Shown: one piece after another, positions 4,324 through 20,000 of the stretch
Numbering within the stretch: the stretch's first letter is position 1
Layout: each line of letters opens with the position of its first letter
Virus record (IMG/VR): IMGVR_UViG_2831345111_000005
DNA: 20,000 nt
Source: an uncultured virus (IMG/VR IMGVR_UViG_2831345111_000005)
Lineage: Duplodnaviria > Heunggongvirae > Uroviricota > Caudoviricetes
Direction: 5' to 3' (one strand)
The notes under the pieces: generated by a model
The model's database searches: none
What the model saw: only the letters and a program-made list of their open reading frames with translations
What the model was told of the DNA's origin: nothing
Program-made: the position numbers and the translations under genes

Positions 4324-4710
4324 TTAGAGGTACCGCTGACTTCCGACACGTCCCGGCTTTAATGCCACAACGATGCCGCGGCAAGAGGGGGTGTTTCGAC
4401 GCTTGGGGTCGTTAGGGTTACTCATGGCATATCGGCGTTCTGCCGATAGCATGGTTGACCGGATGTTTCTGGCTACAACAGGGTTGCTGCGGTCGTGAAT
4501 ACACCAGTGCGGCACGGTTTTTCCGTAGATGCCTGAGGACTTGAGTATTTCTGCTGCCACCTCGTAAGGGGAGCCGCCGTCACCGAGGTCCGAGTCAAAT
4601 GAAATTTGGCGGACGTGCTCAGTTGCTAGTAGCTTAATGGCCTCCTTTGCGGAGCGGCACACTGTGGCGCCGACAGGAGCGGGTCGACTATCATCGAGGA
4701 ATAGGAACAT
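4324..4710 (-). CDS. cyclic-phosphate-processing receiver-like domain protein
   Basis: LFLDDSRPAP...CRSAKEAIKLL...ISFDSDLG...IH..NPV matches the LxLDDxRxxP...ISxDHDLG...HSxNP family pattern, with His replaced by Ser in DHDLG. Confidence 0.7.
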   Translation of the reverse strand: MFLFLDDSRPAPVGATVCRSAKEAIKLLATEHVRQISFDSDLGDGGSPYEVAAEILKSSGIYGKTVPHWCIHDRSNPVVARNIRSTMLSAERRYAMSNPNDPKRRNTPSCRGIVVALKPGRVGSQRYL

Positions 4711-5375: not shown

Positions 5376-8216
5376 TTAGTCTTTAATCCAAAGCACACCG
5401 GTCGCCGGGCTTACCGCGCAAGGAACACCGTAGGGCATCGTGAGCTTGTTGGCTTCTTCCACCATGACCATTTCGATAATTTCCAGATGTGCTTTGAACT
5501 TGTCTTCGTCCAGGCAGAACACCACTTCGTCATGCACCTGATTGATAGCGCAATCGAAGATATCGGGGTATTCCACGTTAAGGCGGTGCATAATCATGCC
5601 GAGGATGTCGGCGCCTGATGACTGGTCCTGGTAGGACAGTGCAGCATTGAGGCCAAAGGCCACAATCTCACGTTCAGCCAGCGTGCGTGCCATCCACCAG
5701 CCGGTACGAACCGGCTTTTCCTTCGTGCCATCGGGCAGATACACAATCCCGGCTTGCAGACACTCGGTCCAGAGGTGCCACAATTCAACTTCAGGGTAGG
5801 CATCCATCCACAAGTCGCGGATATCGCCGGCCTCATCCAAGGTCCAGTGTTCGTCGTAGCCACGTGCAGCCGCCTCCTGGAAGCCTGCATCGGCCATCCC
5901 ATAGAGTAGGGACAAGTTAGCAATCTTGCCTTGCTGGCGCTTAGGCCCAAGTTCTTTCTTGAGCTTCTTCTCGTAGTTCTTGCGGTCCGAGGGAGTAAGG
6001 CCCTCGAACTCTTTCATGGGGTCGCGGCCTGCGAGCTTCATACCGGTGAAGGTGTGAATATCGATGTCGGCTACGAAAGCGTCGCGAAGGGCGGAATAAT
6101 CAGTTTCACCGCGTGCAACGGCGTACGACATACACTGCGCCAGACGGTAACCTAAGCGAGCTGCCAGCAGCTCATCTTTAACTTCGCCGCGCAGTTTGTA
6201 ATACTTGTTGCGCTGGATGCCGCCATCATCGAGCTGGCGCTTGAGGTTCTCCATCCGCTCATCCAGACGCGTAACTTCCTTCTTGAACCTTGCGGCTTCT
6301 GACTTCAGCGCCGCTTCCGCATCAGGGAGGCCCAGTAATCTTGCAATGGTGGTGATAGCGGCCAGCACATTCTCTGGTGGTTGCGTGCCACCAGGAACCA
6401 CATGCCCACGTGCTGCTGCCAGCATGTCCCGCTGAGCACGTACGCACAATGCAGCCCCCACGCGTACATCCAGTGCCCCAAAGTCGGAGGCAACAATGCG
6501 ATGCGTGAATTGCGCCTCAATGGCCGCGCCAAACTCCTTACGTTCAGCAGATGCTTTATGCGCACCAGCAAAGGAACTGAATTCGGTGGAAACCAGCGCG
6601 CCAACCTTGACCGTCTTACCGGTGGCGGCCGCAAGCACAGCCTGGTTTTCCTCGGTCGCTAAAACAGTAATCTTGTCTGTGGCGTACAGCCCGGCAAGCC
6701 ACGCCGATTCAACGCGAACCACTTCACCAATTGAAACGTCACGGTCGGCGGCTTTAGCAATGAGTGGTTGATTCCAGACCGTCACCAGCACGTCCATGAA
6801 TTCGCAACCGGGCTTCGTGTAGGCCATACACATCGCGCGGAACAACTGGTCCCGCGGCCACTGTTGAACGTTGGGTTCGGACGCTGCCAATCGCCCTGTG
6901 ACCGGACCATGCGAGAGCAGGGCGCGCACACGGCCGTCGGCACTACGTTCGGCGAAGCCGACCACTTCAAGGGCCATGTTCGAGGTTTTCTTTGCTCTGC
7001 AAACGGCCACCCATGCATTGAACAATGGCCTGGACTCTTCAATCTGGATTGCGCGACAAGCCCGGAGGTCCTTTTCCCCGACTTGCGGGGCGCCGGTAGC
7101 CGCGGTACGACGTAAAACGACGCCACGCTTCTCAAAGGCAGCCGCAAGACACTTCTTAAGGTCGTCGTCCAACCCGGCATCCGGGTCAGATAGCGCTTCG
7201 CGATAGGTCTCTAACGTGGGCTCTAGGGCGATGAGCTCACTAACCTTCATGCTGAGCTCGATACGCTTGGTTCTAACGTACTTGTTGCCGACGCTGGTAT
7301 TGAGCGGCATGCCGTGTTCGCGCAACAGCACCAGTTCGGGCACTTGGGGCTCTACCAATCGAACCGTCGCCTTTCGAGCGCGTTGACCTAGATAAGCCTG
7401 ATAGAGGTCGCCTTCGGCATCCAGCCCAAGCAATTCGCATAGGATGCGGTCCGCCCACACCACGTCATCAATGGCGTAATCGTAGTGGCCAAAGCTCAGC
7501 AACCCGGTCCAATTAGTCGGTTTCTGGAAGGATTTATCGACCACCACCCCAAACATCGCCAACACGACGTCCGCCAAGCTGCCGCCAGATGCCCCGGTGA
7601 TAAGGGACTTCCATGCGGCCTGCTCAACTTCGGTAGCGGTAACAATCTCGGTGTTGTGCTTGATGCTCGACACCAGCTCGGCTCGCTTCAGCACCAGCTT
7701 GGGGTTCAAAAGGCGAACCATCAACATGGTGTCGACCACGATGGCCGGCATCACGGTACGGCCTTGCGCCAGTCGCAGCCAATACAAGTCGAAGCCTGCG
7801 TTGTGCGCTATGAAAATGCGGCGGGAAAGGATGCATTGCGCAACTTCCTGTGTGAGCGCAGGCCCCATCTTGTCGCAGTCAAAGGCAAACTCAATACGAG
7901 GACCCTTACGACCGCGCACCGTCGGTACACGCACTTGAATGGTACGCATGCGCACGCGAGAGGAAGCGCCTTGCTTCCAGTTCTGCATATCAATGACGAC
8001 AGGGGAGGATGCGTCGGTGAGCCCGGTGGTTTCAACGTCGACGGAGGCCCATTGAGCTTGGCCAATCAGGTCCAGCGCGGCATAAACCTCATCCTTGTCG
8101 GATAGGAATTCCGGGCGATTGCCCTGGGCGTCGCACACTTCAAACCCGAATCCTAGCTGGTCGGGTAGCGCCAACGGTTTATGTTTTGCTTTTGCTGCCA
8201 ATCTCGTCTCCACCAT
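5376..8216 (-). CDS. polA: family A DNA polymerase with 3'-5' exonuclease, no 5'-3' exonuclease domain
   Basis: Exo I DVETTG, Exo II AHNAGFD, Exo III YAIDD; TGRLAASEPNVQQWPR; motif A DFGALDVR, DIH, motif B RQQGKIANLSLLYG, motif C VHDE. Start uncertain (ATG 8216, or TTG 8201 after GGAG); ATG 8273 lies inside the promoter. Confidence 0.9.
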   Translation of the reverse strand: MVETRLAAKAKHKPLALPDQLGFGFEVCDAQGNRPEFLSDKDEVYAALDLIGQAQWASVDVETTGLTDASSPVVIDMQNWKQGASSRVRMRTIQVRVPTVRGRKGPRIEFAFDCDKMGPALTQEVAQCILSRRIFIAHNAGFDLYWLRLAQGRTVMPAIVVDTMLMVRLLNPKLVLKRAELVSSIKHNTEIVTATEVEQAAWKSLITGASGGSLADVVLAMFGVVVDKSFQKPTNWTGLLSFGHYDYAIDDVVWADRILCELLGLDAEGDLYQAYLGQRARKATVRLVEPQVPELVLLREHGMPLNTSVGNKYVRTKRIELSMKVSELIALEPTLETYREALSDPDAGLDDDLKKCLAAAFEKRGVVLRRTAATGAPQVGEKDLRACRAIQIEESRPLFNAWVAVCRAKKTSNMALEVVGFAERSADGRVRALLSHGPVTGRLAASEPNVQQWPRDQLFRAMCMAYTKPGCEFMDVLVTVWNQPLIAKAADRDVSIGEVVRVESAWLAGLYATDKITVLATEENQAVLAAATGKTVKVGALVSTEFSSFAGAHKASAERKEFGAAIEAQFTHRIVASDFGALDVRVGAALCVRAQRDMLAAARGHVVPGGTQPPENVLAAITTIARLLGLPDAEAALKSEAARFKKEVTRLDERMENLKRQLDDGGIQRNKYYKLRGEVKDELLAARLGYRLAQCMSYAVARGETDYSALRDAFVADIDIHTFTGMKLAGRDPMKEFEGLTPSDRKNYEKKLKKELGPKRQQGKIANLSLLYGMADAGFQEAAARGYDEHWTLDEAGDIRDLWMDAYPEVELWHLWTECLQAGIVYLPDGTKEKPVRTGWWMARTLAEREIVAFGLNAALSYQDQSSGADILGMIMHRLNVEYPDIFDCAINQVHDEVVFCLDEDKFKAHLEIIEMVMVEEANKLTMPYGVPCAVSPATGVLWIKD

Positions 8217-8263
8217 GGGGCTGGGTGCAATGGACTTACTTGAGCACCCATGTATTTCTAAGT

Positions 8264-8292
8264 ATAATACCATTAAATACTATATTTCGCAA
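8264..8292 (-). promoter_or_regulatory. sigma70-type promoter for polA operon
   Basis: Minus strand TTGCGA-17bp-TATTAT with TG extended -10. Confidence 0.6.
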
Positions 8293-8387: not shown

Positions 8388-9506
8388 ATGAGTACGAAAA
8401 CCTATAAGAAGCGGGTCGAGGCCGACAAGGTCCGCGACCAGGCGCACGGCAAATGGCTGGATATCCTGCCGTCGCTGGTGCCGGGATACTTCAATAATGC
8501 GTTACAGAAGATTGGAACGCACGTGACGTGTCCTTTTCATGGGGGTAAGGAAGATTTTCGATTCATTAAGCAAGCCAAGCCAGGTAAGGGAAATACGCGT
8601 GAAGTAGGGGTCGCAATGTGCTCCTGCGGGGTCTATCCTGATGGGTTCGCTGTGTTGATGAAGGCCACTGGCTGGACATTCAATGAAACCCTGATTCGGG
8701 TGGATGAGTGGCTCAACGGGTCCTCCTACCAGGAAACGGTAACGCCAGCTCCTATCAAGGTGTATTCGGATGAAGACGACGAAGAACAGAACAAAAAGAT
8801 TCTGGCCAATCTTCTCAATTTATGGGAAGCGGGCAAGCCGTTGGACATCAAGCAAGTGCCTTATTACCTGGGCCGGGGATTGCATGCTCGCGTGTTGGTG
8901 GATATGCAGGATGAGCGTTTTATTGCGAGTCTGGGCTATTACGAATACGTGAAAAAGAATCCGGCTGACCCAAATAGTGAGGAGATACTGGTTAAAACTG
9001 GTAGCTACCCCGCAATTCTGGCTATGATGCGAGATGCTCAAGGCAACCCGGTGGCGGTTCATCGCACCTGGTTATCCAAGGATAAGAAAGAGAAGGCTCC
9101 GGTCCGCAAGGCCAAGAAGCTCTCCCGCACGATAGGCGCGGCAGGTGCAGCAATGCGCTTGTACGACGCTACCGGCGCAGACACACTTGGATTGGCTGAA
9201 GGCAAGGAAACTGCGCATTCGGTTCGTCAGCTGGCGATGGGGCGGTATTGGCCTGAGCTGGGGAAAATTCCAGTATGGGCAACCTACTCTGAGCGCAACA
9301 TTCGTAACTTTGTGATTCCAGATTCAATGTTGGGTACCCTGCGTAAAATCGTTATCTTCGCGGATAACGACCCAAACGGTACCGGGTTTTCGGCTGCTGC
9401 TGAATTCAAGGAACGTATGGCGCTTGAGCATCCTGAAATCGAAGTCGATATCAAGATGCCTGAGGTTGAAGGCATGGACTGGAACGACGTTCTGGTCAAT
9501 CTGTAA
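8388..9506 (+). CDS. Zn-ribbon + Toprim primase-like protein (P4 alpha N-terminus-like, no helicase domain)
   Basis: CPFHGGKEDFRF...CSCG..PDG zinc-binding domain; VAVHRTWL; Toprim AEGKETA, IFADND, DWNDVL; GGAGG RBS. Confidence 0.85.
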   Translation: MSTKTYKKRVEADKVRDQAHGKWLDILPSLVPGYFNNALQKIGTHVTCPFHGGKEDFRFIKQAKPGKGNTREVGVAMCSCGVYPDGFAVLMKATGWTFNETLIRVDEWLNGSSYQETVTPAPIKVYSDEDDEEQNKKILANLLNLWEAGKPLDIKQVPYYLGRGLHARVLVDMQDERFIASLGYYEYVKKNPADPNSEEILVKTGSYPAILAMMRDAQGNPVAVHRTWLSKDKKEKAPVRKAKKLSRTIGAAGAAMRLYDATGADTLGLAEGKETAHSVRQLAMGRYWPELGKIPVWATYSERNIRNFVIPDSMLGTLRKIVIFADNDPNGTGFSAAAEFKERMALEHPEIEVDIKMPEVEGMDWNDVLVNL

Positions 9507-9557: not shown

Positions 9558-9587
9558 AAAAAAGCCGAGGAATAATCCCCGGCTTTT
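9558..9587 (-). terminator. intrinsic terminator after traN-like gene
   Basis: Minus strand AAAAGCCGGGGA-TTAT-TCCTCGGCTTTTTT. Confidence 0.7.
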
Positions 9588-9604: not shown

Positions 9605-11542
9605 CTACTTAGCAGCTTCGTATGGAGCGCAAGCGTCATTGACGGTGTAGTTGCACGCCATCGTCCAGGCAGAGACTTGGAAGTACGCCCACATTTCACC
9701 GCCGCCACCCACACCAGTATCGATACGCAGGTAGTTCCGGCCATTCACGAGATAAGGCACGAAGTTGATGTTGGTAGAGGCACGCCAGCTCACGTTACGC
9801 TCCCAGTAAGACTGCCATGAGGTGACTGGGCTGCAGGTAAGGCCGCTCATTTGCCAGGAACACACATTTTGAGTCATCCACTGGCCCCAGGTGTCATAGG
9901 TCGGGTTGTAGGAGCCGCCTCCGTAATCCGCCCACAACCAATGACCATTAATGGACACCGCCATCAGGTCATCGTACCCAACGTAATACATCAGGAATTG
10001 CTTTACCGTCGCCACATCCTGGATGTCAATCGTAAACTCACGATGGTAGTACCCGGTGCTCCAATAGTTGTCACCGATAGCCCCCACTCTGAATTGGACC
10101 GTATAGGGGTCTGGCTGACCAATCACAGAAATACTAGTGTCGCCAGAAGTAACGTTTAGGTCCAGACCACCCTGATTAATGATGGCTTTCTGCTGACACA
10201 ACTGCGGCACGGCCGTTGTCGCGCAAGAATAGGTTGCGGTCGTACGCTGCTCAGTACAGATTTCCGTCGGCTTGGTGCGCGCGGACGTAATGTCATTCAG
10301 CGTGTAGTCCGTCTTGGTGGTGCAATTACGCATCGACAGTGGGACGTCCGAGCTGCAAGTCTGCGTCCAGGTGTTGGTGTTAACCACCTTCTGCACGCAA
10401 ACCTCTGTCGTGCCGCAATCTTGGCCTTCTGCAGCGACCTGGGCGGTCTTGGCCAACGGATGGATGCCGCTCTCATTGCTGTATGTCTGGTCACACACCG
10501 TAATCTTGCCGTCGGTCGCAATGCCGTGGCCAATTTGCTGCAAACATTCGCTGCCGTTCGCACCATACTTGGCTTGATACTGAGGAATCAGCGGATTGGC
10601 TTGCAGCTTCTGAATTGAAGCCCACTGGTTCGTGTGGTCTTGCGGATTCGGCACTGAACCGGCACCAGCGGTCATCATGTCCTTCGTGACCGTGGTCTTG
10701 TGGCGATAGGCAATACGGAAGCCGACCGCAGTCTTGTGCGTGTTGTTGTTGACGAAGCTCTGAACAATCTTAAGCGCCGTCATATTGTCCGAATCCGCCT
10801 TGAAATCAGGCGTAATGCCGCCAGACAGCGAGGGGTAGAACACCATTGCCAGGCCGTTACGTGCTTTTTGGTCCGCCGTCGCATTGCTTGGCATGCTGGC
10901 TTGCCAGCTCACCGTGGTTTCCGTGCTCCAGCCGTTCAAGCTGTTTTCAGGTTCCGAATCACACGCTGCAACACGGCAGACCTTGCCTGCGGGCGGCTTG
11001 TAGTTCGAGGCCGTGGGGTCGCTTGAACAATCAACTGCGTTATCCGGCTGGCTTACCGGCAGGCCGCGGGCAGGGGCCGTGCAAACCTTGAAGGTGATTT
11101 GCGCGTCACCGGTATCCGACACCTGACAATTTGAGACCTTGACCGCTACGCCGGCGATTACCTGGCTACGCGTGTTGCCGCAGGCCACGGCCAGGATACC
11201 CGTCTGCGCCGAGTAGCTGGAGGAGTTACCATCCTTATCGAGGAAGTTGAAGCTCTGAGTGCCCGCGGCCGTCTGGGCTTGAACTTGCAGCCCGTTGTAG
11301 TCCGGCATATCGTTGGCGCCGAACGCGCTGTGGCAGTTCTTGCCATTGGCGTCGCACTCCTCCGCACCCTTACTCATGAAGGATGTGATAGCGCCTACGG
11401 CCTGAGCCTTAGCCACCGCTTGATTGGCGTTCAACGTCGGGTTGGAAATCACCCCGTTGGACACTGGCGGACGGTCGGCAAGGGCTTGTGCTGAAAGCCC
11501 CATCAACGCCAAAGCAACAATTGAAAATCCGAACTTCATCAC
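9605..11542 (-). CDS. traN: TraN-like Cys-rich secreted mating-pair stabilisation protein (N-terminal and tip portion only)
   Basis: Signal peptide; about 21 Cys; T-rich C-x-n-C beta stalk segments; YDDLMAVSINGHWLW resembles TraN tip-domain motif; ends CNYTVNDAC. Confidence 0.6.
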   Translation of the reverse strand: MMKFGFSIVALALMGLSAQALADRPPVSNGVISNPTLNANQAVAKAQAVGAITSFMSKGAEECDANGKNCHSAFGANDMPDYNGLQVQAQTAAGTQSFNFLDKDGNSSSYSAQTGILAVACGNTRSQVIAGVAVKVSNCQVSDTGDAQITFKVCTAPARGLPVSQPDNAVDCSSDPTASNYKPPAGKVCRVAACDSEPENSLNGWSTETTVSWQASMPSNATADQKARNGLAMVFYPSLSGGITPDFKADSDNMTALKIVQSFVNNNTHKTAVGFRIAYRHKTTVTKDMMTAGAGSVPNPQDHTNQWASIQKLQANPLIPQYQAKYGANGSECLQQIGHGIATDGKITVCDQTYSNESGIHPLAKTAQVAAEGQDCGTTEVCVQKVVNTNTWTQTCSSDVPLSMRNCTTKTDYTLNDITSARTKPTEICTEQRTTATYSCATTAVPQLCQQKAIINQGGLDLNVTSGDTSISVIGQPDPYTVQFRVGAIGDNYWSTGYYHREFTIDIQDVATVKQFLMYYVGYDDLMAVSINGHWLWADYGGGSYNPTYDTWGQWMTQNVCSWQMSGLTCSPVTSWQSYWERNVSWRASTNINFVPYLVNGRNYLRIDTGVGGGGEMWAYFQVSAWTMACNYTVNDACAPYEAAK

Positions 11543-11551
11543 TTTCTCCGG

Positions 11552-12103
11552 TTAATCTTTTTTCTGGTTGGCAACCTGGCGCTCGGTTTTTTCCTGCGCC
11601 AAGCGTTCGCAGGTCTTCTGGGTGCTTGAAGGCAGCTTCTCGATAACTTCCAGCCCCTTCTTGGGGTTGACCAGGTCGGTGTCAGCGACTTCCTTCATCA
11701 TGCAATCACAGTAGTTCGCCGACTTAAGGTAGCCCGGGCCAAACAGGGCTTCCATTTCATAGGAAGACATCTTCCAGATGCGCTGACTATCCGATAGATT
11801 CTTAGCGGCGTCCTTCTGAACCTGCGTGTACTTACCCTGGCGGTCCAGCTTCACCATGGTCACAGCCTTGGTGAGCGTTCCCCGTGCGCAAGCTTCGGAG
11901 TAGGTGGCGCGCAAAAAGCGCAGCATGTCCGGCTCATTCAGGTACTTCTGCTGCACAAGCGGGTCCGTGAGCTTGAGATTCTTCAGCATCGGAGGCTCTT
12001 TAGCCGAATCCTGGCCCAGCCCGACAGGTTTGGCAGCATCATCCGCCAGAACAGTGCCAGAAAGCGACGCCAGAAGAAGGGCAGCAAGAAGGTGTTTCAT
12101 CAT
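11552..12103 (-). CDS. secreted hypothetical protein
   Basis: Signal peptide (VLA-DD), 4 Cys including YCDC; TAATG coupling to upstream gene. Confidence 0.8.
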   Translation of the reverse strand: MMKHLLAALLLASLSGTVLADDAAKPVGLGQDSAKEPPMLKNLKLTDPLVQQKYLNEPDMLRFLRATYSEACARGTLTKAVTMVKLDRQGKYTQVQKDAAKNLSDSQRIWKMSSYEMEALFGPGYLKSANYCDCMMKEVADTDLVNPKKGLEVIEKLPSSTQKTCERLAQEKTERQVANQKKD

Positions 12104-12654
12104 TAATCCTGTTTTTGAGTCAAAATGGTTTGCAGCGCGTTCTCGAACAAGTGCCCGACCTGATAAATTGCGGTCTCCATCGTGAGCGCAGAGTCGTACA
12201 AGTCAGGAACATCAAAATTCCAGTCAAACAGCACCTCGCCGGTCGACATTTGCATCTGAATTGGTTGCTGGCCGGGGAAGGTTGAAGAAATACGGGCGCC
12301 CACCTGGCTCTGCATCAGCGCCAGCGTCTTTGGGACGCGAACGCCCACACGCAGGACCTTACCCATCTGCAGAATGGACAGCCGGAATGACCGGCCGCTA
12401 GCCAGGTTCTCGCGAATTGTCAGGTAACCACGGGCAGGATTGGCAATCCAGTCTTCATCCGCAATTTTGCGCGCCGGAGAATCCCACAGCGGGTCGGAAA
12501 GATTCTTGGCGTCGGAACGCTCGTCTGGGCGCAAATGCGCACGAATTGCAAAAAAGAATCCTTCACGAGCTTCAATAATGAAGTTTCGCGCAGATAGATA
12601 GTCTCCGAACTTACGGAGACTTGGGTTGAATGCTTGTTTATCGGTAGCCTGCAT
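12103..12654 (-). CDS. hypothetical protein (183 aa, no signal peptide)
   Basis: Tight operonic spacing on both sides. Confidence 0.8.
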   Translation of the reverse strand: MQATDKQAFNPSLRKFGDYLSARNFIIEAREGFFFAIRAHLRPDERSDAKNLSDPLWDSPARKIADEDWIANPARGYLTIRENLASGRSFRLSILQMGKVLRVGVRVPKTLALMQSQVGARISSTFPGQQPIQMQMSTGEVLFDWNFDVPDLYDSALTMETAIYQVGHLFENALQTILTQKQD

Positions 12655-12656
12655 TG

Positions 12657-13040
12657 TTAGTCCTTGACGGCGAATTGAATGTTGTGGATGTCGTTTGACG
12701 CCAACTTATCCATGACACCGGCAACAGCCGCGAACGTTGCTGCCTTGTCCGCAAACACTTTTGCCGTAGTGGCGCCCCTCATCTTTGCGTATAGCTTCGT
12801 CCAATCGACTACGCGCAGACCGTCGGACCACACCGACCCATCAGAATGAATTTCGAGCGTCACCGAGGTGTCCTGGGTCATGACCGCGCCTGCCGAGGTT
12901 GCCGGCAAATCCACTCCAATCGACTTCGCCATGAACGGCGTGAGCAGCAGTAGCACGGCTACCAGCACCAGCAGCACATCGAGAAGCGGGATAATATTGA
13001 TTTCAGCCGCAGCGCGGCGCTGTTGAGCCTTGGTCATCAC
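12657..13040 (-). CDS. exbD: ExbD/TolR family protein
   Basis: AEINIIPLLDVLLVL TM with conserved Asp; VDLP; ADKAATFAAVAGVMDKL periplasmic motif. Confidence 0.9.
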   Translation of the reverse strand: MMTKAQQRRAAAEINIIPLLDVLLVLVAVLLLLTPFMAKSIGVDLPATSAGAVMTQDTSVTLEIHSDGSVWSDGLRVVDWTKLYAKMRGATTAKVFADKAATFAAVAGVMDKLASNDIHNIQFAVKD

Positions 13041-13442
13041 TTACTCCTGGGTGGACGAAGCGGCTTCTTCCGGGGCCACGGCTACAGGCTCCTCAGGCAA
13101 GACCATCAGAATGACGCGATGAGCAATCAATGCCGGGATAGCACAGCCCAGGCCCCATAAAGTGGCATATAAGGCTTCCCCAATCGGGTGCGCAATTGCG
13201 GCCACATTTAAATTGCCAGAACCAATCCCGGACAATGCCTGGATGATGTGCCATACGGTGCCGAACAGGCCCACATAGGGGGAAGTGGCTGCAATCAAGG
13301 CCAGACCGGCCAACCAGGGGTCAACAATGGCCGGATTGCGCGCCTTGCGTGCCGCTGCAGCAATGAAGCCGCCACCAACTGCCAGTGTCACGGTGAGCCA
13401 GAAAATTGCGTAAAGGGTGTACTGAATGATATTGCCAATCAT
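13041..13442 (-). CDS. exbB: miniature MotA/TolQ/ExbB proton-channel protein (133 aa)
   Basis: SPYVGLFGTV and IGEALYATLWGLGCAIPA helices; GGAG RBS. Confidence 0.85.
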   Translation of the reverse strand: MIGNIIQYTLYAIFWLTVTLAVGGGFIAAAARKARNPAIVDPWLAGLALIAATSPYVGLFGTVWHIIQALSGIGSGNLNVAAIAHPIGEALYATLWGLGCAIPALIAHRVILMVLPEEPVAVAPEEAASSTQE

Positions 13443-13463
13443 ATGAACTCCAGTGTCAGTGAA

Positions 13464-14135
13464 TCAGGGTAGAAATTCGTTAGTGCCATAGTCGATAACC
13501 AGGTCGAGTTGCCACATCTGCTCTTCGCCCGGCGCCTTCATGAGCTTGTCGATGCTGTAGCTGCGGGACATCATGGCCTTCAGGATGAGGGCGTCACGCA
13601 TGGGCTCGGCACCTTGGCGAACAATCCCGCCACGCTTTGCATTGCCATTGGCATCAACATAAATTCGGATGTACACCTGTCGCGGGCCAACGGCGAAGGG
13701 GTCGGGCTGTTCGCCTACGGAAGCATCCTGTGCCATCAGCTTGCCTCCCGGCATGGAGACTTGAGCTGGAGGAATAACTTCATCCGGCTTGGCGGCCTCG
13801 GGTCCTACAGTCGTGTCCTGGGCAGCGGCAACCGCTTTTGGCAAACTGGTCTCACGCTCTGCGGAGACTACTTTGTTCACGCGCTCCTTCGGGGGCTCAG
13901 CCACCACATCAGGCGCGGTTTTGTCGACGTTGGCAGGAGCCTCCTGGGCTGCCTGCTTTGGACCTTGGAGCACTGCAACGGAGAATCGCATGGTGCTCAG
14001 GCTGGGCGGAGCTTGCTCCCCTGTCGACTTGAAGGTGTGCAATAAAGCATAGAGAAGCAGGGATGCAGCCAAGCCGCCCGCCAAGAACGCTCTGGCGCGC
14101 GGGGAAGGGCAATTCAGGTTGAGCTTTCCAAGCAT
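13464..14135 (-). CDS. TonB/TolA-like energy transducer
   Basis: N-terminal TM (ASLLLYALLH), Pro/Ala/Glu-rich linker, C-terminal VYIRIYVDANG...RDALILKAM resembling TonB_C; adjacent to exbB/exbD; ATG 14135 overlaps upstream stop (TGATG). Confidence 0.65.
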   Translation of the reverse strand: MLGKLNLNCPSPRARAFLAGGLAASLLLYALLHTFKSTGEQAPPSLSTMRFSVAVLQGPKQAAQEAPANVDKTAPDVVAEPPKERVNKVVSAERETSLPKAVAAAQDTTVGPEAAKPDEVIPPAQVSMPGGKLMAQDASVGEQPDPFAVGPRQVYIRIYVDANGNAKRGGIVRQGAEPMRDALILKAMMSRSYSIDKLMKAPGEEQMWQLDLVIDYGTNEFLP

Positions 14136-14572
14136 CAAGTCGGATGATTCCATTTCTCGTAAATCCCCCACCAGTGGTGCATCACCTTGCTGGCGTATCT
14201 GAAGCCTGCGTCACGCCGCTGAGGCGTGTTTAGCGAGCCGACGTTGTACCGCGCAATGGCTCGATACCAGTCAGGCTCACGAGCCTTGTAATAAGCCAGC
14301 ACATAGGCGCCTGCAACCGCATTCGCACAAGCATCATGCTGAAGCTTAGAAGATGAGATACCCCACTTTTGGAAGTGCCCAGTCCACGTGTCTGAAATCT
14401 GGAATGGACCGAAGTAGGTCCCCGTGCTTCGGACATACGCCTTACCAACCTCACCACCCTCCTGCTTCAGAATGGATAGCAGCGCAGCTACGGGCACTGA
14501 ATAATGCTGTGCCGCACGCATGACGCAAGTGGTCGGAATTTCAGGGGGGAGTTCAGCAGATACCCAAAACAC
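14135..14572 (-). CDS. lytic transglycosylase (SLT; TrbN/VirB1-like)
   Basis: C..AAQHYSVP..LLSILKQEGG (catalytic Glu), GPFQI, DACAN, AIARYN. Confidence 0.85.
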   Translation of the reverse strand: MFWVSAELPPEIPTTCVMRAAQHYSVPVAALLSILKQEGGEVGKAYVRSTGTYFGPFQISDTWTGHFQKWGISSSKLQHDACANAVAGAYVLAYYKAREPDWYRAIARYNVGSLNTPQRRDAGFRYASKVMHHWWGIYEKWNHPT

Positions 14573-14598
14573 AGCTGTTATCTCATAAATTTAAGGAC

Positions 14599-14627
14599 AG
14601 TATACCGATTTATAGTTGTTTTGTCAA
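14599..14627 (-). promoter_or_regulatory. sigma70-type promoter for SLT-tonB-exbBD-traN operon
   Basis: Minus strand TTGACA-17bp-TATACT. Confidence 0.75.
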
Positions 14628-14706: not shown

Positions 14707-15072
14707 TTATTCGTCGATGCCGAGGCCAGACGGTTGTTCTTCTTCCAGTTCGTCAGCATCAACCACCTGGAAACGGTCAGCAACCAGTTCGTTGGTGACA
14801 AACCCTTCGGTAACGATATGCTTGAGCACGCCCTGGACGTGGCCGGTAACGTCGGCAAGGCAGCCGACCTTCAGGTGGTCCTTGCACTTCTCATACACAT
14901 AAGGGGGAATGCGAACCAGCGCCACGTTCACGAACTGGACCGATTGCTCGGTACGTTGACGGGACGGGCCGTATTGAATCCATGCTACCGCAGCCGGGCC
15001 TTTCTTGGCGGGCTTGTTATTGACGTCGATACGCTTAACTTCACCGGACAACACAAAGGTGTTAATAGTCAT
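14707..15072 (-). CDS. ssb: single-stranded DNA-binding (SSB/PriB-like OB-fold) protein
   Basis: INTFVLSGEV start, LKVGCLADVTGHV, ELVADRFQVV, acidic C-terminal tail. Confidence 0.7.
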   Translation of the reverse strand: MTINTFVLSGEVKRIDVNNKPAKKGPAAVAWIQYGPSRQRTEQSVQFVNVALVRIPPYVYEKCKDHLKVGCLADVTGHVQGVLKHIVTEGFVTNELVADRFQVVDADELEEEQPSGLGIDE

Positions 15073-15120: not shown

Positions 15121-15636
15121 TTAATCACAGTTATTTCGCTTCCCGTTTTTAGTACCTGGGCTGCGCTCGGACGCCTTGTGGGCAACCTTGTGCTTGCTTC
15201 CGCGGTGATGCTTCTTAATCGCGTGGGGACCCTTATTGGGGGTCGGCACGGTTGTCACTACGACGGTCGTCTCGTGGTATAGGGCAGAACACGTAATTTC
15301 GGTATGAAATTTGTTAGCTAATTGTGTAGCGTTATCGCACTGCTTCGAAATTTCAGCGCATTCCTTGCGATGCGCTTTATCAGTTGGCTTGATACACCCT
15401 GGCGCACGGACCTCGAGAACATGCCAGTTGGGACCGGCCGTTGACTTTAGCAACTCTTCAGCGGCCGATGGAGATACTTCTCGCACTTCTGAGTGAGCAT
15501 AGGTGTCCGCCGACAAGCGCACCGCCGCGGCATCAAGCGGGTTTTGTGGTGGGACAGGTTGCGGCGTCAGGGCCGCCAGCGCGCATTGGCTGAATCCAAC
15601 CAAGGCAAGGGTGCTAAGCAGGGTAGAGAATCGCAT
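15121..15636 (-). CDS. secreted hypothetical protein (171 aa)
   Basis: Start reassigned to ATG 15636 with AGGAG RBS; signal peptide ending ALA; several Cys; basic His/Lys-rich tail. Confidence 0.75.
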   Translation of the reverse strand: MRFSTLLSTLALVGFSQCALAALTPQPVPPQNPLDAAAVRLSADTYAHSEVREVSPSAAEELLKSTAGPNWHVLEVRAPGCIKPTDKAHRKECAEISKQCDNATQLANKFHTEITCSALYHETTVVVTTVPTPNKGPHAIKKHHRGSKHKVAHKASERSPGTKNGKRNNCD

Positions 15637-15647
15637 GGGGACTCCTG

Positions 15648-16292
15648 TTATTTGGTTGATTCGTTGAGTTTGTGCAGAACTTTTTGCACTAGCGGACCGG
15701 GTTCGGAAGCATCTGCGGGGGAAATCAGTTGCTTGATTTTTCCGTCGTGTACCCAAGCGAATACAGGAACTTCAGTCGCGCCGGACATATCAACCAGACG
15801 GCCTACCTTGACCTCAGAAACCAGGGTGATATCGGATGCCGCGCGGTCGGCGACGGCCAGCAAGTCAAACTTGGGTACCGTCTGCTTAATGCGTTGCGGG
15901 AGCTGGCGGCGCTCCAGGAAGGAGATAATCTGCGGGAGCTCTTCAAAATTCTGCCCCTCGCGCTGGATGCCATCAAACAAGGCATCACGCACGATATTTT
16001 CGGCGCCAGGGAAGAGGTCACGAACGGCGTAGTAGAACCGGTCCGGCCATAAGGATTGGCCCTCCCATGCGGCCGGGGCCACACGTAAAGGAATCTTGGC
16101 CTCTTTGGCGGCCTGAGCAATCGTGTCGAACTGGTCATTCACGGCATGGCAGCGCGGGCAGTGGAAGTTAATGATTTCCACCAGCACCGTATCTGTTGGG
16201 CCAGCTGCGACTCCGGGCGTAGGCATGTCCGCCATTGCAGTCAGGGGCAGCAGTGCCAGTCCAACCAAGGATGAAATCAGCTTGATTCGCAT
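15648..16292 (-). CDS. dsbA: periplasmic DsbA-like thiol:disulfide oxidoreductase
   Basis: Signal peptide, VEIINFHCPRCH (CxxC), EVP cis-Pro loop. Confidence 0.75.
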   Translation of the reverse strand: MRIKLISSLVGLALLPLTAMADMPTPGVAAGPTDTVLVEIINFHCPRCHAVNDQFDTIAQAAKEAKIPLRVAPAAWEGQSLWPDRFYYAVRDLFPGAENIVRDALFDGIQREGQNFEELPQIISFLERRQLPQRIKQTVPKFDLLAVADRAASDITLVSEVKVGRLVDMSGATEVPVFAWVHDGKIKQLISPADASEPGPLVQKVLHKLNESTK

Positions 16293-16300
16293 GCGGCCTC

Positions 16301-16699
16301 CTATTGCTTAACAGGCAGCGGCTGAGCGAGTGAGCCAGGATTGCCGGGGTGGTTATGTTCGTCCGCGGGCGCGGCTTGCTCTACAGGCTTATAGATTGCG
16401 ATGGATTGCATTGACGGCGCAGGCTTGATGAGGCCGGCGGCAATAGCCTTGTTGTAATCGGCCTGGTAGAAGAGGCGCCAGATAAGGAATTGGCAGCTGT
16501 AATCGAGCTTGTCACTCCAGCGAGCAGTGGTGGCTGTATGGCTCTCAGCGGACAGCGCCGTGGTGGAGGTGGCTACGTTGCCGACCCAGTTAATCGGCTC
16601 ACAGGCGCGAGAAATGCGGTCTTGGGGTACCGGTGCCGCAAAAATCCAGATGATGAAAAACAAAATGGGAACACCGAATAAAAGTTCCTTGATTTGCAT
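16301..16699 (-). CDS. membrane-anchored hypothetical protein (132 aa)
   Basis: Start reassigned to ATG 16699 downstream of promoter; N-terminal TM, two Cys. Confidence 0.75.
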   Translation of the reverse strand: MQIKELLFGVPILFFIIWIFAAPVPQDRISRACEPINWVGNVATSTTALSAESHTATTARWSDKLDYSCQFLIWRLFYQADYNKAIAAGLIKPAPSMQSIAIYKPVEQAAPADEHNHPGNPGSLAQPLPVKQ

Positions 16700-16736
16700 A
16701 TATTTCCAGTCAGAACTTGAGGAATGATTATTGCAT

Positions 16737-16765
16737 AGTATATCGTAGAATGATATATTTCGCAA
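16737..16765 (-). promoter_or_regulatory. sigma70-type promoter for the dsbA/ssb operon
   Basis: Minus strand TTGCGA-17bp-TATACT. Confidence 0.65.
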
Positions 16766-16890
16766 CATCACCGGCATTCAGTTGTTAACAAATATTACAA
16801 GTTAACTATGCAAGCGCGAGCTATACGGACTTAGGTCCATATCTCGCCTGAAGCTGGGCATAAATATTTATAACGGAAGGAAATCAAATC

Positions 16891-19242
16891 ATGACAGCAA
16901 CAACAACGAAGGAAGAGCTGGTTTTCCAGCTGGCTGATATCCGGTTTTCCAAAGACGGGTTTCACATTGCACGCACGACCAAGGGTGACAGTGTCGCCGG
17001 CAAGTTCAATGCGCAGGTTGGCCATTGCTATAAGGCTGCTGGCGAATGGGACCGGACCTCGGATAAGGCGTTGACCTACGGGCCGACGTTTAAGATTGAG
17101 TCCGCTGTCTCCATCCGCATGCCGTCCCCTGAAGCGCTTGGCCGCTATCTGGTGTTTGCCCTCCGTGGCAAGGGCTCGGGTACCGCGGCTGTTGGTGAAA
17201 TCGTGGTGAGCATGCTGGTGCAAGGCGTCAAGGAAGAAGGCCTCGACCTCGAGGAGCTTCTCGACCATTGCAAACGGGATACGCTCATCGACCTGGTGGG
17301 GACGCGTAACACGCCTAAGGTGGATACCATCCTGGCGTGGTGGCCCAAAATCAAGCCGGCTGCTGACTTGATGTCGCCGTTGCTGGGTTATGGGTTGTCC
17401 GAAGCGATGGCGGAAACGCTCATCAACATCTATGGTAGTCGTGTTATCGAGGAGGTGGAGAAGCGTCCGTATGACCTCATTCTTGAGGTTGACGGTGTTT
17501 CTTTCCTGACCGCTGACAAGATTGCCATGAAGGTTGGCCTCATTTCCAAGACTGACCCGTTGCGCCTGCGTGCAGCATTGGCTACAGGCATGCGCGATGC
17601 GACGTCGAACGGTGATGTAGGTGTGCGCCGCAAGCTGTTGGTTGACCGCACGATGCCGTTGGTCAATGAATCAGTCATCGAAAATGGCCGTCGCAAGCTG
17701 GCCCCTGGCGTTCCTCCTGCTGTTCCGGCCAACGTGCTGGAAAACATCCTCGACGACATGATTAAAGGGTCGTTCGTGGATGCTCAGGGTAAAGACTGTG
17801 AGTTCTCCAAGGAATTGGTTGAGTTCGCAGACGACAAGGGTGAAGTGGTAGTCTGGTATGCCCCGTTGGTTGAGGCAGAACGGACGATTGCTCGCCGGCT
17901 TGCGCAGTTCAACGCCAAGCCTCGTCCTGACCTGGCAGCACGTGTGGAGGAGTTCGCTACCAAGCTGGGCGCCACCCTGGCTCCTGAGCAACATGCAGCC
18001 GTAGGCATGGTTTTGTCGAACCCGGTTTCCGTCATTACAGGCGGCCCTGGTTGCGGCAAAAGCTTTGTCCTGAAAGTCGTTCTTGCTGCGTTGGATGCTG
18101 CCGGGTACAAGGGCACGTTGATTGCGCCGACGGGTAAAGCCGCTAAGCGTATTACCGAGTCCACTGGTCGTCTTGCGCAGACTGCGCATTCAGCGATTGG
18201 ATTTGGTGGTAAGCAGCGTGCAGCCTTCAATGAGGATTGCCCTTTGGCATCGCATTACCTGGTCATCGATGAGGCATCCATGATGGATACCGAATTGACG
18301 GCCGCGGTACTGTGTGCAGCAGCTAATCACTGCCGCATCATCATTGTGGGCGACGTCGACCAGCTTCCGAGCGTCGGCCCTGGCCAAGTGCTGCGAGACA
18401 TCATTCTGGCGGACATCGTGCCGGTCACCCGACTGACGCGCGTGTTTCGACAGGGTGCTGGCTCCGGTATTGTGACGGCAGCAAAAGTCATCAACACTGG
18501 GCATATGCCGGAAACAACCGATGACGGGCAGTTTGTCATGGTTGAGACCGAAACGCCGGCGCAGGACTTGCTGGAGGCTATGCGTGAGCTGATTGCTTCT
18601 GGCGTGAATCCGGATGATATTCAGGTACTGGCGCCCACCCATAAGGGTGACGCTGGCTGCACCGCGCTTAATAAGGCAGTGCAGGCGTTACTGAATCCGG
18701 AAACACCTGGGTCGATGCAGAAGTTGCGTCGAGACTCCGGCGACATCCGTGTCAATGACCGCGTTATTCAGGGTAAGAATAACCGCGAGCTTGGCATCGT
18801 CAATGGGGACATCGGCTGGATTGATGACATTTCGTCCGACAAGGGGAGCGTCCTACTCTCGCTGGCCGACCGACCGGAGCCGTTGAAAATGACGGCACAG
18901 GAGTCGACCAACCTGAAGCTCGCGTATGCCATTACGGTACACAAGAGCCAAGGAGCAGAAGCGCCTTACGTCCTGATTGCTTTAGACCGTGCAGCGAGCT
19001 TCATGCTTCGCCGCAATCTGGTTTATACCGCAGTAACACGCGGAAGCAAGAAGGTGATGTTGTTCGGTTCACTGAACACCGTCTCCGGCGCAGTGCGTCG
19101 TGGTGAGCCGCCTGAAGGTAGCCGCCGCACGTCTCTGGTGAGTAAGTTGAAGGCCAGCTTCCCCTCCATTGGAGCGAAGCCAACGGACCGTATCGCAGCA
19201 GCAATGCTGTCCGATACATTCGATGAATCGCTACCGTTTTAA
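16891..19242 (+). CDS. recD2: RecD2-family SF1B helicase
   Basis: PYDL..VDGVSFLTADKIA; Walker A GGPGCGKS; APTGKAAKR; IDEASM; VGDVDQLPSVGPG; LAYAITVHKSQG; LVYTAVTR; AAGGA RBS. Confidence 0.92.
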   Translation: MTATTTKEELVFQLADIRFSKDGFHIARTTKGDSVAGKFNAQVGHCYKAAGEWDRTSDKALTYGPTFKIESAVSIRMPSPEALGRYLVFALRGKGSGTAAVGEIVVSMLVQGVKEEGLDLEELLDHCKRDTLIDLVGTRNTPKVDTILAWWPKIKPAADLMSPLLGYGLSEAMAETLINIYGSRVIEEVEKRPYDLILEVDGVSFLTADKIAMKVGLISKTDPLRLRAALATGMRDATSNGDVGVRRKLLVDRTMPLVNESVIENGRRKLAPGVPPAVPANVLENILDDMIKGSFVDAQGKDCEFSKELVEFADDKGEVVVWYAPLVEAERTIARRLAQFNAKPRPDLAARVEEFATKLGATLAPEQHAAVGMVLSNPVSVITGGPGCGKSFVLKVVLAALDAAGYKGTLIAPTGKAAKRITESTGRLAQTAHSAIGFGGKQRAAFNEDCPLASHYLVIDEASMMDTELTAAVLCAAANHCRIIIVGDVDQLPSVGPGQVLRDIILADIVPVTRLTRVFRQGAGSGIVTAAKVINTGHMPETTDDGQFVMVETETPAQDLLEAMRELIASGVNPDDIQVLAPTHKGDAGCTALNKAVQALLNPETPGSMQKLRRDSGDIRVNDRVIQGKNNRELGIVNGDIGWIDDISSDKGSVLLSLADRPEPLKMTAQESTNLKLAYAITVHKSQGAEAPYVLIALDRAASFMLRRNLVYTAVTRGSKKVMLFGSLNTVSGAVRRGEPPEGSRRTSLVSKLKASFPSIGAKPTDRIAAAMLSDTFDESLPF

Positions 19243-19340: not shown

Positions 19341-20000
19341 ATGTGCTCCCACTACGACCCGGTGCTTGACCATACAGTACTCCGCGAATACTTCGGCGTT
19401 GAGGAGTCGCTTGCGCCTGGCATGAAGCCTAGTCTTTGGCCTGGGTATGTCGGCCCATTCATCCGCCGCCATGAACATGCGGATGTCGGGGATGAGGCGG
19501 TGCCACCTCGCGAGTTGATGCAAGGGAGCTTTGGGCTCATCCCGCATTGGAGCAAGGACGCGACCATTGCGCGGAGAACCTATAACGCCAGGTCGGAGAC
19601 GGTTGCCGAGAAACCAAGCTTTCGCGATGCCTGGCGTCTTGGCCGGCACTGCATCATTCCTGCAACCGGCTTCTTTGAGCCTGACTGGCGCAGTGGCAAA
19701 GCGGTGCCCACCAGGATTACGCGCAAGGATGGTGCGCCTATCGGGATAGCTGGTTTGTGGGCGATGTGGAAGCAACCGGATGGCGCGACATTGCATAGCT
19801 TTACCATGCTTACCGTCAACGCAGATGACCACCCGTTCATGCGCAACTTCCATAAGCCCGGCGATGAAAAACGCATGATTGTTATCTTGCCTGAAAACCA
19901 GTACGACGCCTGGCTGACCGCCCCGGCAGATGAAAGCAGGGCATTCCTTCAGCAGTACCCATCAGACCTGCTTGAAGCCGTCGCGTCCCCGGCCAGATAA
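19341..20000 (+). CDS. SOS response-associated peptidase (SRAP/HMCES/YedK family)
   Basis: N-terminal MC, FGLIPHW, YNARSETV..KPSFR, CIIPATGFFE, IAGLW, SFTMLT, H...RM; stop TAA at 19998-20000. Confidence 0.92.
   Translation: MCSHYDPVLDHTVLREYFGVEESLAPGMKPSLWPGYVGPFIRRHEHADVGDEAVPPRELMQGSFGLIPHWSKDATIARRTYNARSETVAEKPSFRDAWRLGRHCIIPATGFFEPDWRSGKAVPTRITRKDGAPIGIAGLWAMWKQPDGATLHSFTMLTVNADDHPFMRNFHKPGDEKRMIVILPENQYDAWLTAPADESRAFLQQYPSDLLEAVASPAR

Follow-up and report, generated by a model that had tools for sequence, protein, structure and literature searches.

The known tasks of Ton and Tol motors are import and maintenance of the cell envelope, and in the Agl-Glt and Nfs machineries of Myxococcus a TolQR-type motor and TonB-like proteins move adhesin or coat proteins of the outer membrane. 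Mating-pair stabilisation is currently described as the binding of TraN to outer-membrane proteins of the recipient, where the base of TraN is conserved and its beta-sandwich tip is variable and determines recipient specificity (PMC9246713, PMC13104618). Among the papers listed in our literature searches, no title or abstract describes a motor of the Ton or Tol type for any conjugative element. Here, we have analyzed a 20,000-nucleotide stretch (the window) of the uncultured virus record IMGVR_UViG_2831345111_000005, which corresponds to C7:125828-145827 of a 3.69-Mb assembly (G000). It contains an operon for a TonB-like protein, a very short ExbB and an ExbD, together with a lytic transglycosylase (SLT), two proteins of 183 aa (U183a and U183b) and a large secreted protein of 645 aa (Big645). 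We tentatively propose, as a possibility rather than a probability, that this operon encodes a dedicated motor driven by the proton-motive force (pmf) and serving a mating adhesin of the TraN-tip type, mating-pair formation or stabilisation being the likeliest process.

The operon occupies positions 14572-9605 of the minus strand, where seven tightly packed open reading frames (ORFs) run head to tail, all of them exactly where they had first been placed. In the direction of transcription they encode SLT (14135-14572; 145 aa, PF01464), the TonB-like anchor (13464-14171; TonB/TolA fold from an AlphaFold2 (AF2) model and fold searches), mini-ExbB/TolQ (13041-13442; 133 aa, PF01618), ExbD/TolR (12657-13040; 127 aa, PF02472), U183a (12103-12654), U183b (11552-12103) and the Cys-rich Big645 (9605-11542); the last three had no family match in Pfam, NCBIfam or PADLOC. 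The SLT and TonB-like genes share a TGATG overlap, the ExbB and ExbD genes meet at TAA-GTGATG, U183a follows ExbD after 2 nt, and U183a and U183b are joined by a TAATG overlap; Shine-Dalgarno-like GGAG motifs lie in the short spacers ahead of the ExbB and Big645 genes. A sigma-70-type promoter (TTGACA-17-TATACT; 14599-14627, minus strand) with 11 of 12 matches is located 27 nt upstream of the SLT start, and an intrinsic terminator (9560-9587, minus strand), consisting of a 12-bp stem with six GC pairs and a T-run, is located 18 nt past the Big645 stop codon. The ORFs, the stop-start junctions and both flanking sites of the earlier note were thus confirmed. It should be noted that promoter-like sites (3 in the region versus 3.0 in shuffled sequences) and terminator-like sites (4 versus 5.7) were not more numerous than in shuffles, so that these two are credible by quality and position and not by statistics.

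The three motor components that the earlier note had recognized are present, and the trio looks real and functional. Both channel proteins scored well over the Pfam gathering scores: mini-ExbB with PF01618 (E 7.5e-20; 71.4 bits versus 22.9; residues 45-111) and ExbD with PF02472 (E 3.6e-18; 66.3 bits versus 25.4). Mini-ExbB has three transmembrane (TM) segments and almost no cytoplasmic domain. Among the NCBIfam models, TolQ (7e-19) came ahead of ExbB (2e-13) and of the exbB2 model of 138 positions (1.8e-8) for this protein, all below the equivalog cut-offs (68.4, 50.6 and 34.6 bits for TIGR02797, TIGR02796 and TIGR02805, versus curated cut-offs of 221, 206 and 135); for ExbD, TolR (1.7e-17) came ahead of ExbD (9e-13), again far under the equivalog cut-offs. 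The TM Asp of ExbD lies within IPLLDVLLVL, and the motif PLLDVLL is kept in all eight homologues listed.

No Pfam or NCBIfam model, TonB models included, matched the anchor protein, and a profile of its alignment (A1) found no PDB sequence at E up to 1; a second profile (A2) found none either. On the other hand, its AF2 model, built with 25 homologues, has the architecture of the TonB family, that is, an N-terminal TM anchor (helix 18-40), an extended periplasmic linker (residues 41-156, about 115 residues, disordered) and a C-terminal domain of about 70 aa (157-225) with a beta-beta-alpha-beta-beta fold and pLDDT above 90. In a Foldseek search with this model, TonB C-terminal domains led the list (E 0.18-0.65, probability up to 0.99) and made up eight of the best nine named matches. 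When the Foldseek list was compared by a second structural method (VIA), the top 23 rows were all TonB C-terminal domains or TolA domain III (Z 7.4-3.9), and unrelated folds followed at Z 3.9 and below. The best match was 9dc4_T (Z 7.4; root-mean-square deviation 1.8 A over 60 residues), and TolA domain III reached Z 5.8. Values of Z under 8 are middling; the family consistency across rows is convincing, and the fold does not separate TonB from TolA. Some homologues of the anchor are also labelled TonB by JGI or UniRef. In contrast to classical TonB linkers, conservation (mean column identity of 57% overall) was highest in the membrane-proximal segment (0.73) and in the stretch before the C-terminal domain (0.80), versus 0.70 for that domain itself, which points to fixed protein partners; the disordered linker carries near-invariant motifs. 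The start codon is probably the ATG at 14153 or 14135.

Contig C7 (225 kb) has a tetranucleotide signature in common with contigs C8 (108 kb) and C10 (77 kb), with correlations to C7 of 0.96-0.99 versus about 0.88 for chromosome-like contigs. This suggests that the three belong to a single element with a size of about 410 kb or more, and its composition and gene content suggest a plasmid-like conjugative element. C7 carries an F-type set of type IV secretion system (T4SS) genes (TraL, E, K, B, V, C, F, H, G and N, an S26 peptidase and a coupling protein; the TraK and TraV matches fall below the Pfam cut-offs), and the TraN of the element is a protein of 1166 aa (C7:171491-174991). Family scans with Pfam and NCBIfam found no TonB-dependent transporter (TBDT), TolB or Pal in the window, as the earlier note had observed. 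The same was true of the larger setting, where a cognate TBDT had been considered: none of the 10 TBDT matches (PF00593) in the genome lies on C7, C8 or C10, and in Achromobacter anxifer, which carries a related operon, none of 21 such matches lies on the operon's contig (C5). The sole TolB_N match of the genome is on C4, where the host has its own Tol-Pal cluster, and none of 11 matches to the OmpA family (Pal type) is on C7, C8 or C10. The host also has several ExbB paralogues.

SLT, the product of the first gene, matched PF01464 (E 6.8e-7; 29.3 bits versus a cut-off of 21.3), and its best NCBIfam models were TrbN (1.3e-9) and IagB (4.7e-9), with scores that fell far short of the model cut-offs. 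It contains a Glu within KQEGG; the Glu of QEGG is kept in homologues, and we take it to be the catalytic residue. An in-frame stop seven codons upstream and a conserved MFW/MSW N-terminus define where the protein starts, and the pattern MFW/MSW..AELPP was found across 10 homologues. SLT is 29% identical to the SLT encoded beside traN on pHN39-SIM. It is not the sole enzyme of its kind on the element, as other SLT-domain genes are present on C8 and C10. TrbN, VirB1 and IagB carry export signals. The substrate of the operon SLT is periplasmic although an export signal is lacking in 10 of 10 homologues.

Big645, the product of the last gene, has a signal peptide and 21 Cys residues, 16 of which are invariant across 38 sequences. 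AF2 predicted a beta-rich N-terminal domain and a C-terminal beta-sandwich or jelly roll (residues 440-635), and mean pairwise identity was 0.58-0.61 for residues 22-440 versus 0.29 (median 0.21) for residues 441-644. The mature N-terminus is predicted to be disordered yet is conserved (0.74 versus 0.68-0.69 for the folded N-terminal domain). Fold searches with Big645 were dominated by matches of the C-terminal domain and not of the N-terminal domain (residues 93-290); the neighbours of the C-terminal domain are sugar-binding jelly rolls (GH2 N-terminal domains, BcsB, CBM28 and PNGase F). A Foldseek comparison of Big645 with viral models gave only generic tail-fibre-like rows of low TM score (TMq at most 0.14), and this candidate relationship was rejected.

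The earlier note had described the last gene as TraN-like. Big645 had no match to the TraN domain (PF06986) in Pfam at E up to 0.01, and BLASTP detected no similarity to the 1166-aa TraN of the same element, which itself matches PF06986 at 3.2e-19; the description is therefore true of the C-terminal domain only. Judged by sequence comparison, this domain is homologous to one that occurs within TraN or next to it. Its identity to a domain at the end of a PF06986-positive TraN of 1468 aa of Allochromatium pAt1 is 30% (E 5e-13), and in both this plasmid and Nitrosophilus pHRV44 the match sits inside PF06986-positive TraN proteins. On pHN39-SIM and pRK1-4 (both of the two plasmids examined), it corresponds instead to an ORF without annotation that immediately precedes a short traN (E 3e-19 for pRK1-4). 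In PLSDB, 24 records matched the C-terminal domain, 21 of which are typed as conjugative. A word search with this domain alone retrieved five proteins only, and an exhaustive phmmer search retrieved 158 representatives at E up to 1e-3. From the 150 of these that were listed, 44 carriers were selected by length class, not at random, and scanned with Pfam: PF06986 was present in six, the matched stretch lying just N-terminal of the TraN domain in each, whereas all 20 scanned carriers of 348-447 aa were without any Pfam domain. Big645 would thus carry a module of the tip type on a base unlike that of TraN, with the IncF tip as a candidate counterpart of this module.

The two remaining proteins are of different kinds. 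U183a has neither a signal peptide nor a TM segment and is probably cytoplasmic; a structure atlas look-up led, at low confidence, to a chaperone-like fold of the CesT/SycN/YbjN type. U183b has a signal peptide, four invariant Cys residues and an N-terminal VGLGQDSAxEP motif, and is predicted to be periplasmic. Its mean column identity (64%) exceeds that of the TonB-like protein and of Big645 (46%), the atlas gave nothing usable for it, and no similarity to TolB was found. A six-frame motif search of the genome detected no other copy of the N-terminal motifs of Big645 and U183b, and hence no family of partners bearing such a 'box'.

To place the operon among its relatives, we ran word-based searches, which yielded 82 Big645 homologues and 87 anchor homologues (43-72% identity). 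Most came from metagenomes, often on contigs of 0.4-0.67 Mb; the named sources were Burkholderia ubonensis, B. ambifaria, Paraburkholderia, Achromobacter anxifer and Comamonas thiooxydans. A synteny survey of 10 recovered loci, of the kind that the earlier note had called for, revealed that gene order is kept at 45-70% identity wherever the loci reach far enough. SLT adjoins the TonB-like gene in all 10, and ExbB-ExbD follow in all nine that extend that far; U183b is present in eight of eight loci, and the Big645 gene is directly downstream of it in seven. The primase and PolA genes follow in 6/6 loci, and the gene for a CPRC-motif protein, the gene for a 158-aa protein (g158) and RecD2 precede the operon in 6/6 loci with an upstream flank. 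The operon sits in the backbone of the element. Tandem Big645 paralogues occur at L012 and L018 as well as in A. anxifer, and paralogues with different C-terminal domains are found. In A. anxifer, TraN is about 30 kb from the operon, as in the element of the window. At four loci (L013, L016, L017 and L018), two extra converging genes (about 440 and 142 aa, conserved among the four) were observed between the Big645 and primase genes; they are lacking in the window.

Beyond this family the module was not found. A Big645 query matched none of 60 relatives, nucleotide searches with the operon gave nothing in plasmids, phages or E. coli genomes, and tblastn against 72,556 plasmids gave no match for the TonB-like protein, U183a, U183b or ExbD, which indicates that the element family is not in that plasmid collection at this sensitivity. 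A U183b profile found nothing in viral contigs and no true match in 399 other genomes of the class. Eight marginal matches (E 9e-5 to 1e-3) were discarded; the two that were checked are UvrB, and the other six are in ORFs of similar size.

Upstream of the operon, the window encodes a 121-aa protein (14707-15072, minus strand) and a Lys-rich protein that is secreted and about 170 aa long (15121-15639, minus strand), both without a Pfam match and located between the promoter and the CPRC gene. The latter (15648-16292, minus strand) encodes a secreted protein of 214 aa that lies outside the operon and is probably DsbA-like (its DsbA and ScsC matches, at E 0.3-0.5, are sub-threshold), and further upstream lies g158 (16301-16777), for a membrane-like protein whose family was not recognised. 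The replication and repair block of the window (5376-8273, 8388-9506, 16891-19242, 4324-4710, 1873-2517 and 19341-20000) includes a family-A polymerase of 965 aa whose N-terminus carries a long extension, a DUF7146-Toprim primase, RecD2, a cREC_REC receiver-like protein, a PLD/DrmC-like nuclease and an SRAP peptidase. Elsewhere, C7 encodes a TrfA-like protein, a ParM-like protein, topoisomerase III, a ligase, UmuC and two RecJ proteins. Several other features of this contig were also observed: 38 tRNA genes within about 18 kb (C7:46308-64681), one of them with a four-base anticodon call; a tRNA of anticodon TTA, called 'Stop' (74111-74186), and a tmRNA-like gene (20592-20974); an RF-1/PCRF-domain protein (C7:67893-68528); a two-partner secretion (TPS) pair, comprising a 1222-aa TPS/MBG protein and a ShlB/FhaC-type transporter, together with a FecR-domain protein (C7:90120-95922); and a gene for formaldehyde-activating enzyme (C7:76230-76844).

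We propose that the operon may provide a giant conjugative element with a self-contained machine that spans the cell envelope. In the inner membrane, mini-ExbB and ExbD would form a proton channel that energises a dedicated protein of TonB/TolA fold reaching across the periplasm, and the co-transcribed SLT would open the peptidoglycan locally. The output would be proteins of the periplasm or outer membrane that the operon itself encodes, U183b and Big645, and not a TBDT. Big645, with its variable beta-sandwich of the TraN-tip type, would be the likeliest cargo, and the motor would most likely supply the energy to display, position or tension an accessory mating adhesin while mating pairs form or are stabilised. 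This supposes that Big645 is surface-exposed and that its function is conjugative, both of which we infer. The C-terminal domain of the TonB-like protein might capture a strand of its partner, candidates being the mature N-terminus of Big645 (GPPxSNGVISNPTL) or U183b. A bolder form, which we regard as unlikely, is a conjugation-dedicated winch of the TonB type, in which pmf acts through a private arm to pull on or expose the tip-bearing adhesin, and a swappable C-terminal domain sets the choice of recipient. If so, mating-pair formation or stabilisation would be actively energised, and DNA transfer would for the first time be among the roles of a Ton/Tol-type motor.

A number of observations weigh against a motor that serves a mating adhesin. 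There is no evidence for physical contact between the TonB-like arm and the adhesin. Neither a lipobox nor a barrel was seen in Big645, which has a signal peptide only, so that its reach to the surface is unsupported, and the fold matches of its beta-sandwich are generic (Z at most 7.3). The TM helix of TonB is known for a conserved Ser/His motif; the TM columns of alignment A1 contain no invariant His or Ser, and the His of the window protein is not conserved. SLT has neither a signal peptide nor a hydrophobic N-terminus, and a signal peptide is lacking in its 10 homologues. U183a is lacking in one of eight related loci. In A. anxifer, U183b is the last gene of the operon, and two Big645 paralogues in tandem are located about 350 kb away on the same contig. 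The genomic setting is one of replication and repair, with primase and PolA on one side of the operon and the DsbA-like CPRC protein and RecD2 on the other. The earlier note had spoken of a conjugation-type operon running from SLT to TraN: a conjugative F-type element is indeed present on the same contig, but the last gene is not a traN and the tra genes lie 12-36 kb from the operon (the nearest at 12 kb), which is thus not part of a tra operon. Finally, all loci belong to one element family, and their kept order may therefore reflect common descent and not functional coupling.

Other explanations account for part of the same evidence. The motor and SLT might constitute a general Tol-like module for T4SS assembly or outer-membrane integrity, with Big645 as an independent adhesin on a shared transcript. 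Such a helper would agree with the preference of NCBIfam for TolQ/TolR over ExbB/ExbD, with the fold match to TolA domain III, with the best named relatives of SLT (TrbN and IagB, enzymes of T4SS and type III secretion systems) and with the six-gene core of Achromobacter, which stands without Big645. It is made doubtful by the lack of TolB and Pal on an element whose host has its own Tol-Pal cluster, by the further SLT-domain genes on C8 and C10, and by the position of Big645 next to U183b in 7/8 loci. Another explanation is a surface or periplasmic adhesin system with no part in DNA transfer, acting for example in biofilm formation or substrate attachment, in polysaccharide binding or in surface exclusion against related elements. 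The sugar-binding neighbours of the C-terminal domain, the tandem Big645 paralogues with different C-terminal domains and the location of the A. anxifer paralogues (L023, G061:C5:455-459 kb), downstream of genes for a GT2 glycosyltransferase and UDP-glucose dehydrogenase, all lean this way. We nevertheless consider this explanation rather improbable: wherever the context is known, the same domain is fused or adjacent to TraN, and searches of 60 relatives (Big645) and of 399 other genomes of the class (U183b profile) gave no true copy of the module outside this conjugative family.

The motor itself admits two further interpretations. An additional Ton system that energises chromosomal TBDTs of the host, carried as cargo for the uptake of nutrients, could draw on the 10 TBDT matches and several ExbB paralogues of the host genome, and on the database label of some anchor homologues. 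However, no TonB model of Pfam or NCBIfam matches the anchor, which in every locus is linked to SLT, U183b and Big645 and never to a TBDT, and it moves among hosts as unlike as the genome of the window, Burkholderia, Achromobacter and Comamonas, whose TonB boxes need not match; we think this quite improbable. Least credible, and in our judgement very improbable indeed, is a defence against phages or plasmids that, like Zorya, would use a stator-like sensor. A channel of the MotA/ExbB type with a partner protein on a mobile element, near PLD/DrmC-like and cREC genes, would be in keeping with it, but none of the seven operon proteins matched a PADLOC model and Pfam found no nuclease or effector domain in the operon.

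A private motor without a transporter, fixed in the backbone of a family of giant conjugative elements and tied to a variable protein of the TraN-tip type, would extend Ton/Tol motors to cell-cell contact. If the accessory adhesin is energised, the way in which large plasmids select and retain their recipients would gain a new and testable level. In addition, an ExbB of 133 aa, an ExbD of 127 aa and an anchor whose linear motifs are conserved are compact objects for the study of how a motor is coupled to its output.

Comparison with described systems places the operon between several of them. It resembles the Ton system in its ExbB/ExbD-family channel with a TM Asp, in an anchor composed of TM helix, linker and TonB-fold C-terminal domain, and in the size of its ExbB, short ExbBs being a known form (as in the exbB2 model of NCBIfam). 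It differs in that the element has no TBDT, the anchor has no sequence-level TonB_C match, the linker carries near-invariant motifs and not the simple Pro-rich repeats of classical TonB, and the genes are co-transcribed with those for an SLT, two unknown proteins and an adhesin-like protein. The likeness to Tol-Pal lies in the TolQ/TolR preference of the channel pair, in TolA domain III among the fold matches and in U183b as a candidate periplasmic partner, whereas TolB and Pal are absent from the element, the scores are far under the equivalog cut-offs and U183b is unlike TolB. Like F-type TraN (PMC9246713, PMC13104618), Big645 is secreted, Cys-rich and made of a conserved body and a hypervariable beta-sandwich; unlike it, Big645 lacks PF06986, and its variable domain is C-terminal on a different base. 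As with TrbN, VirB1, P19 and IagB, a small protein with an SLT domain is the product of the first gene of an operon whose apparatus spans the envelope, although the operon SLT is without a signal peptide and the SLT of pHN39-SIM aligns with a signal-peptide-like N-terminus. The Agl-Glt and Nfs machineries of Myxococcus are similar in concept alone, in that the output of the motor would be the movement of envelope proteins and not import.

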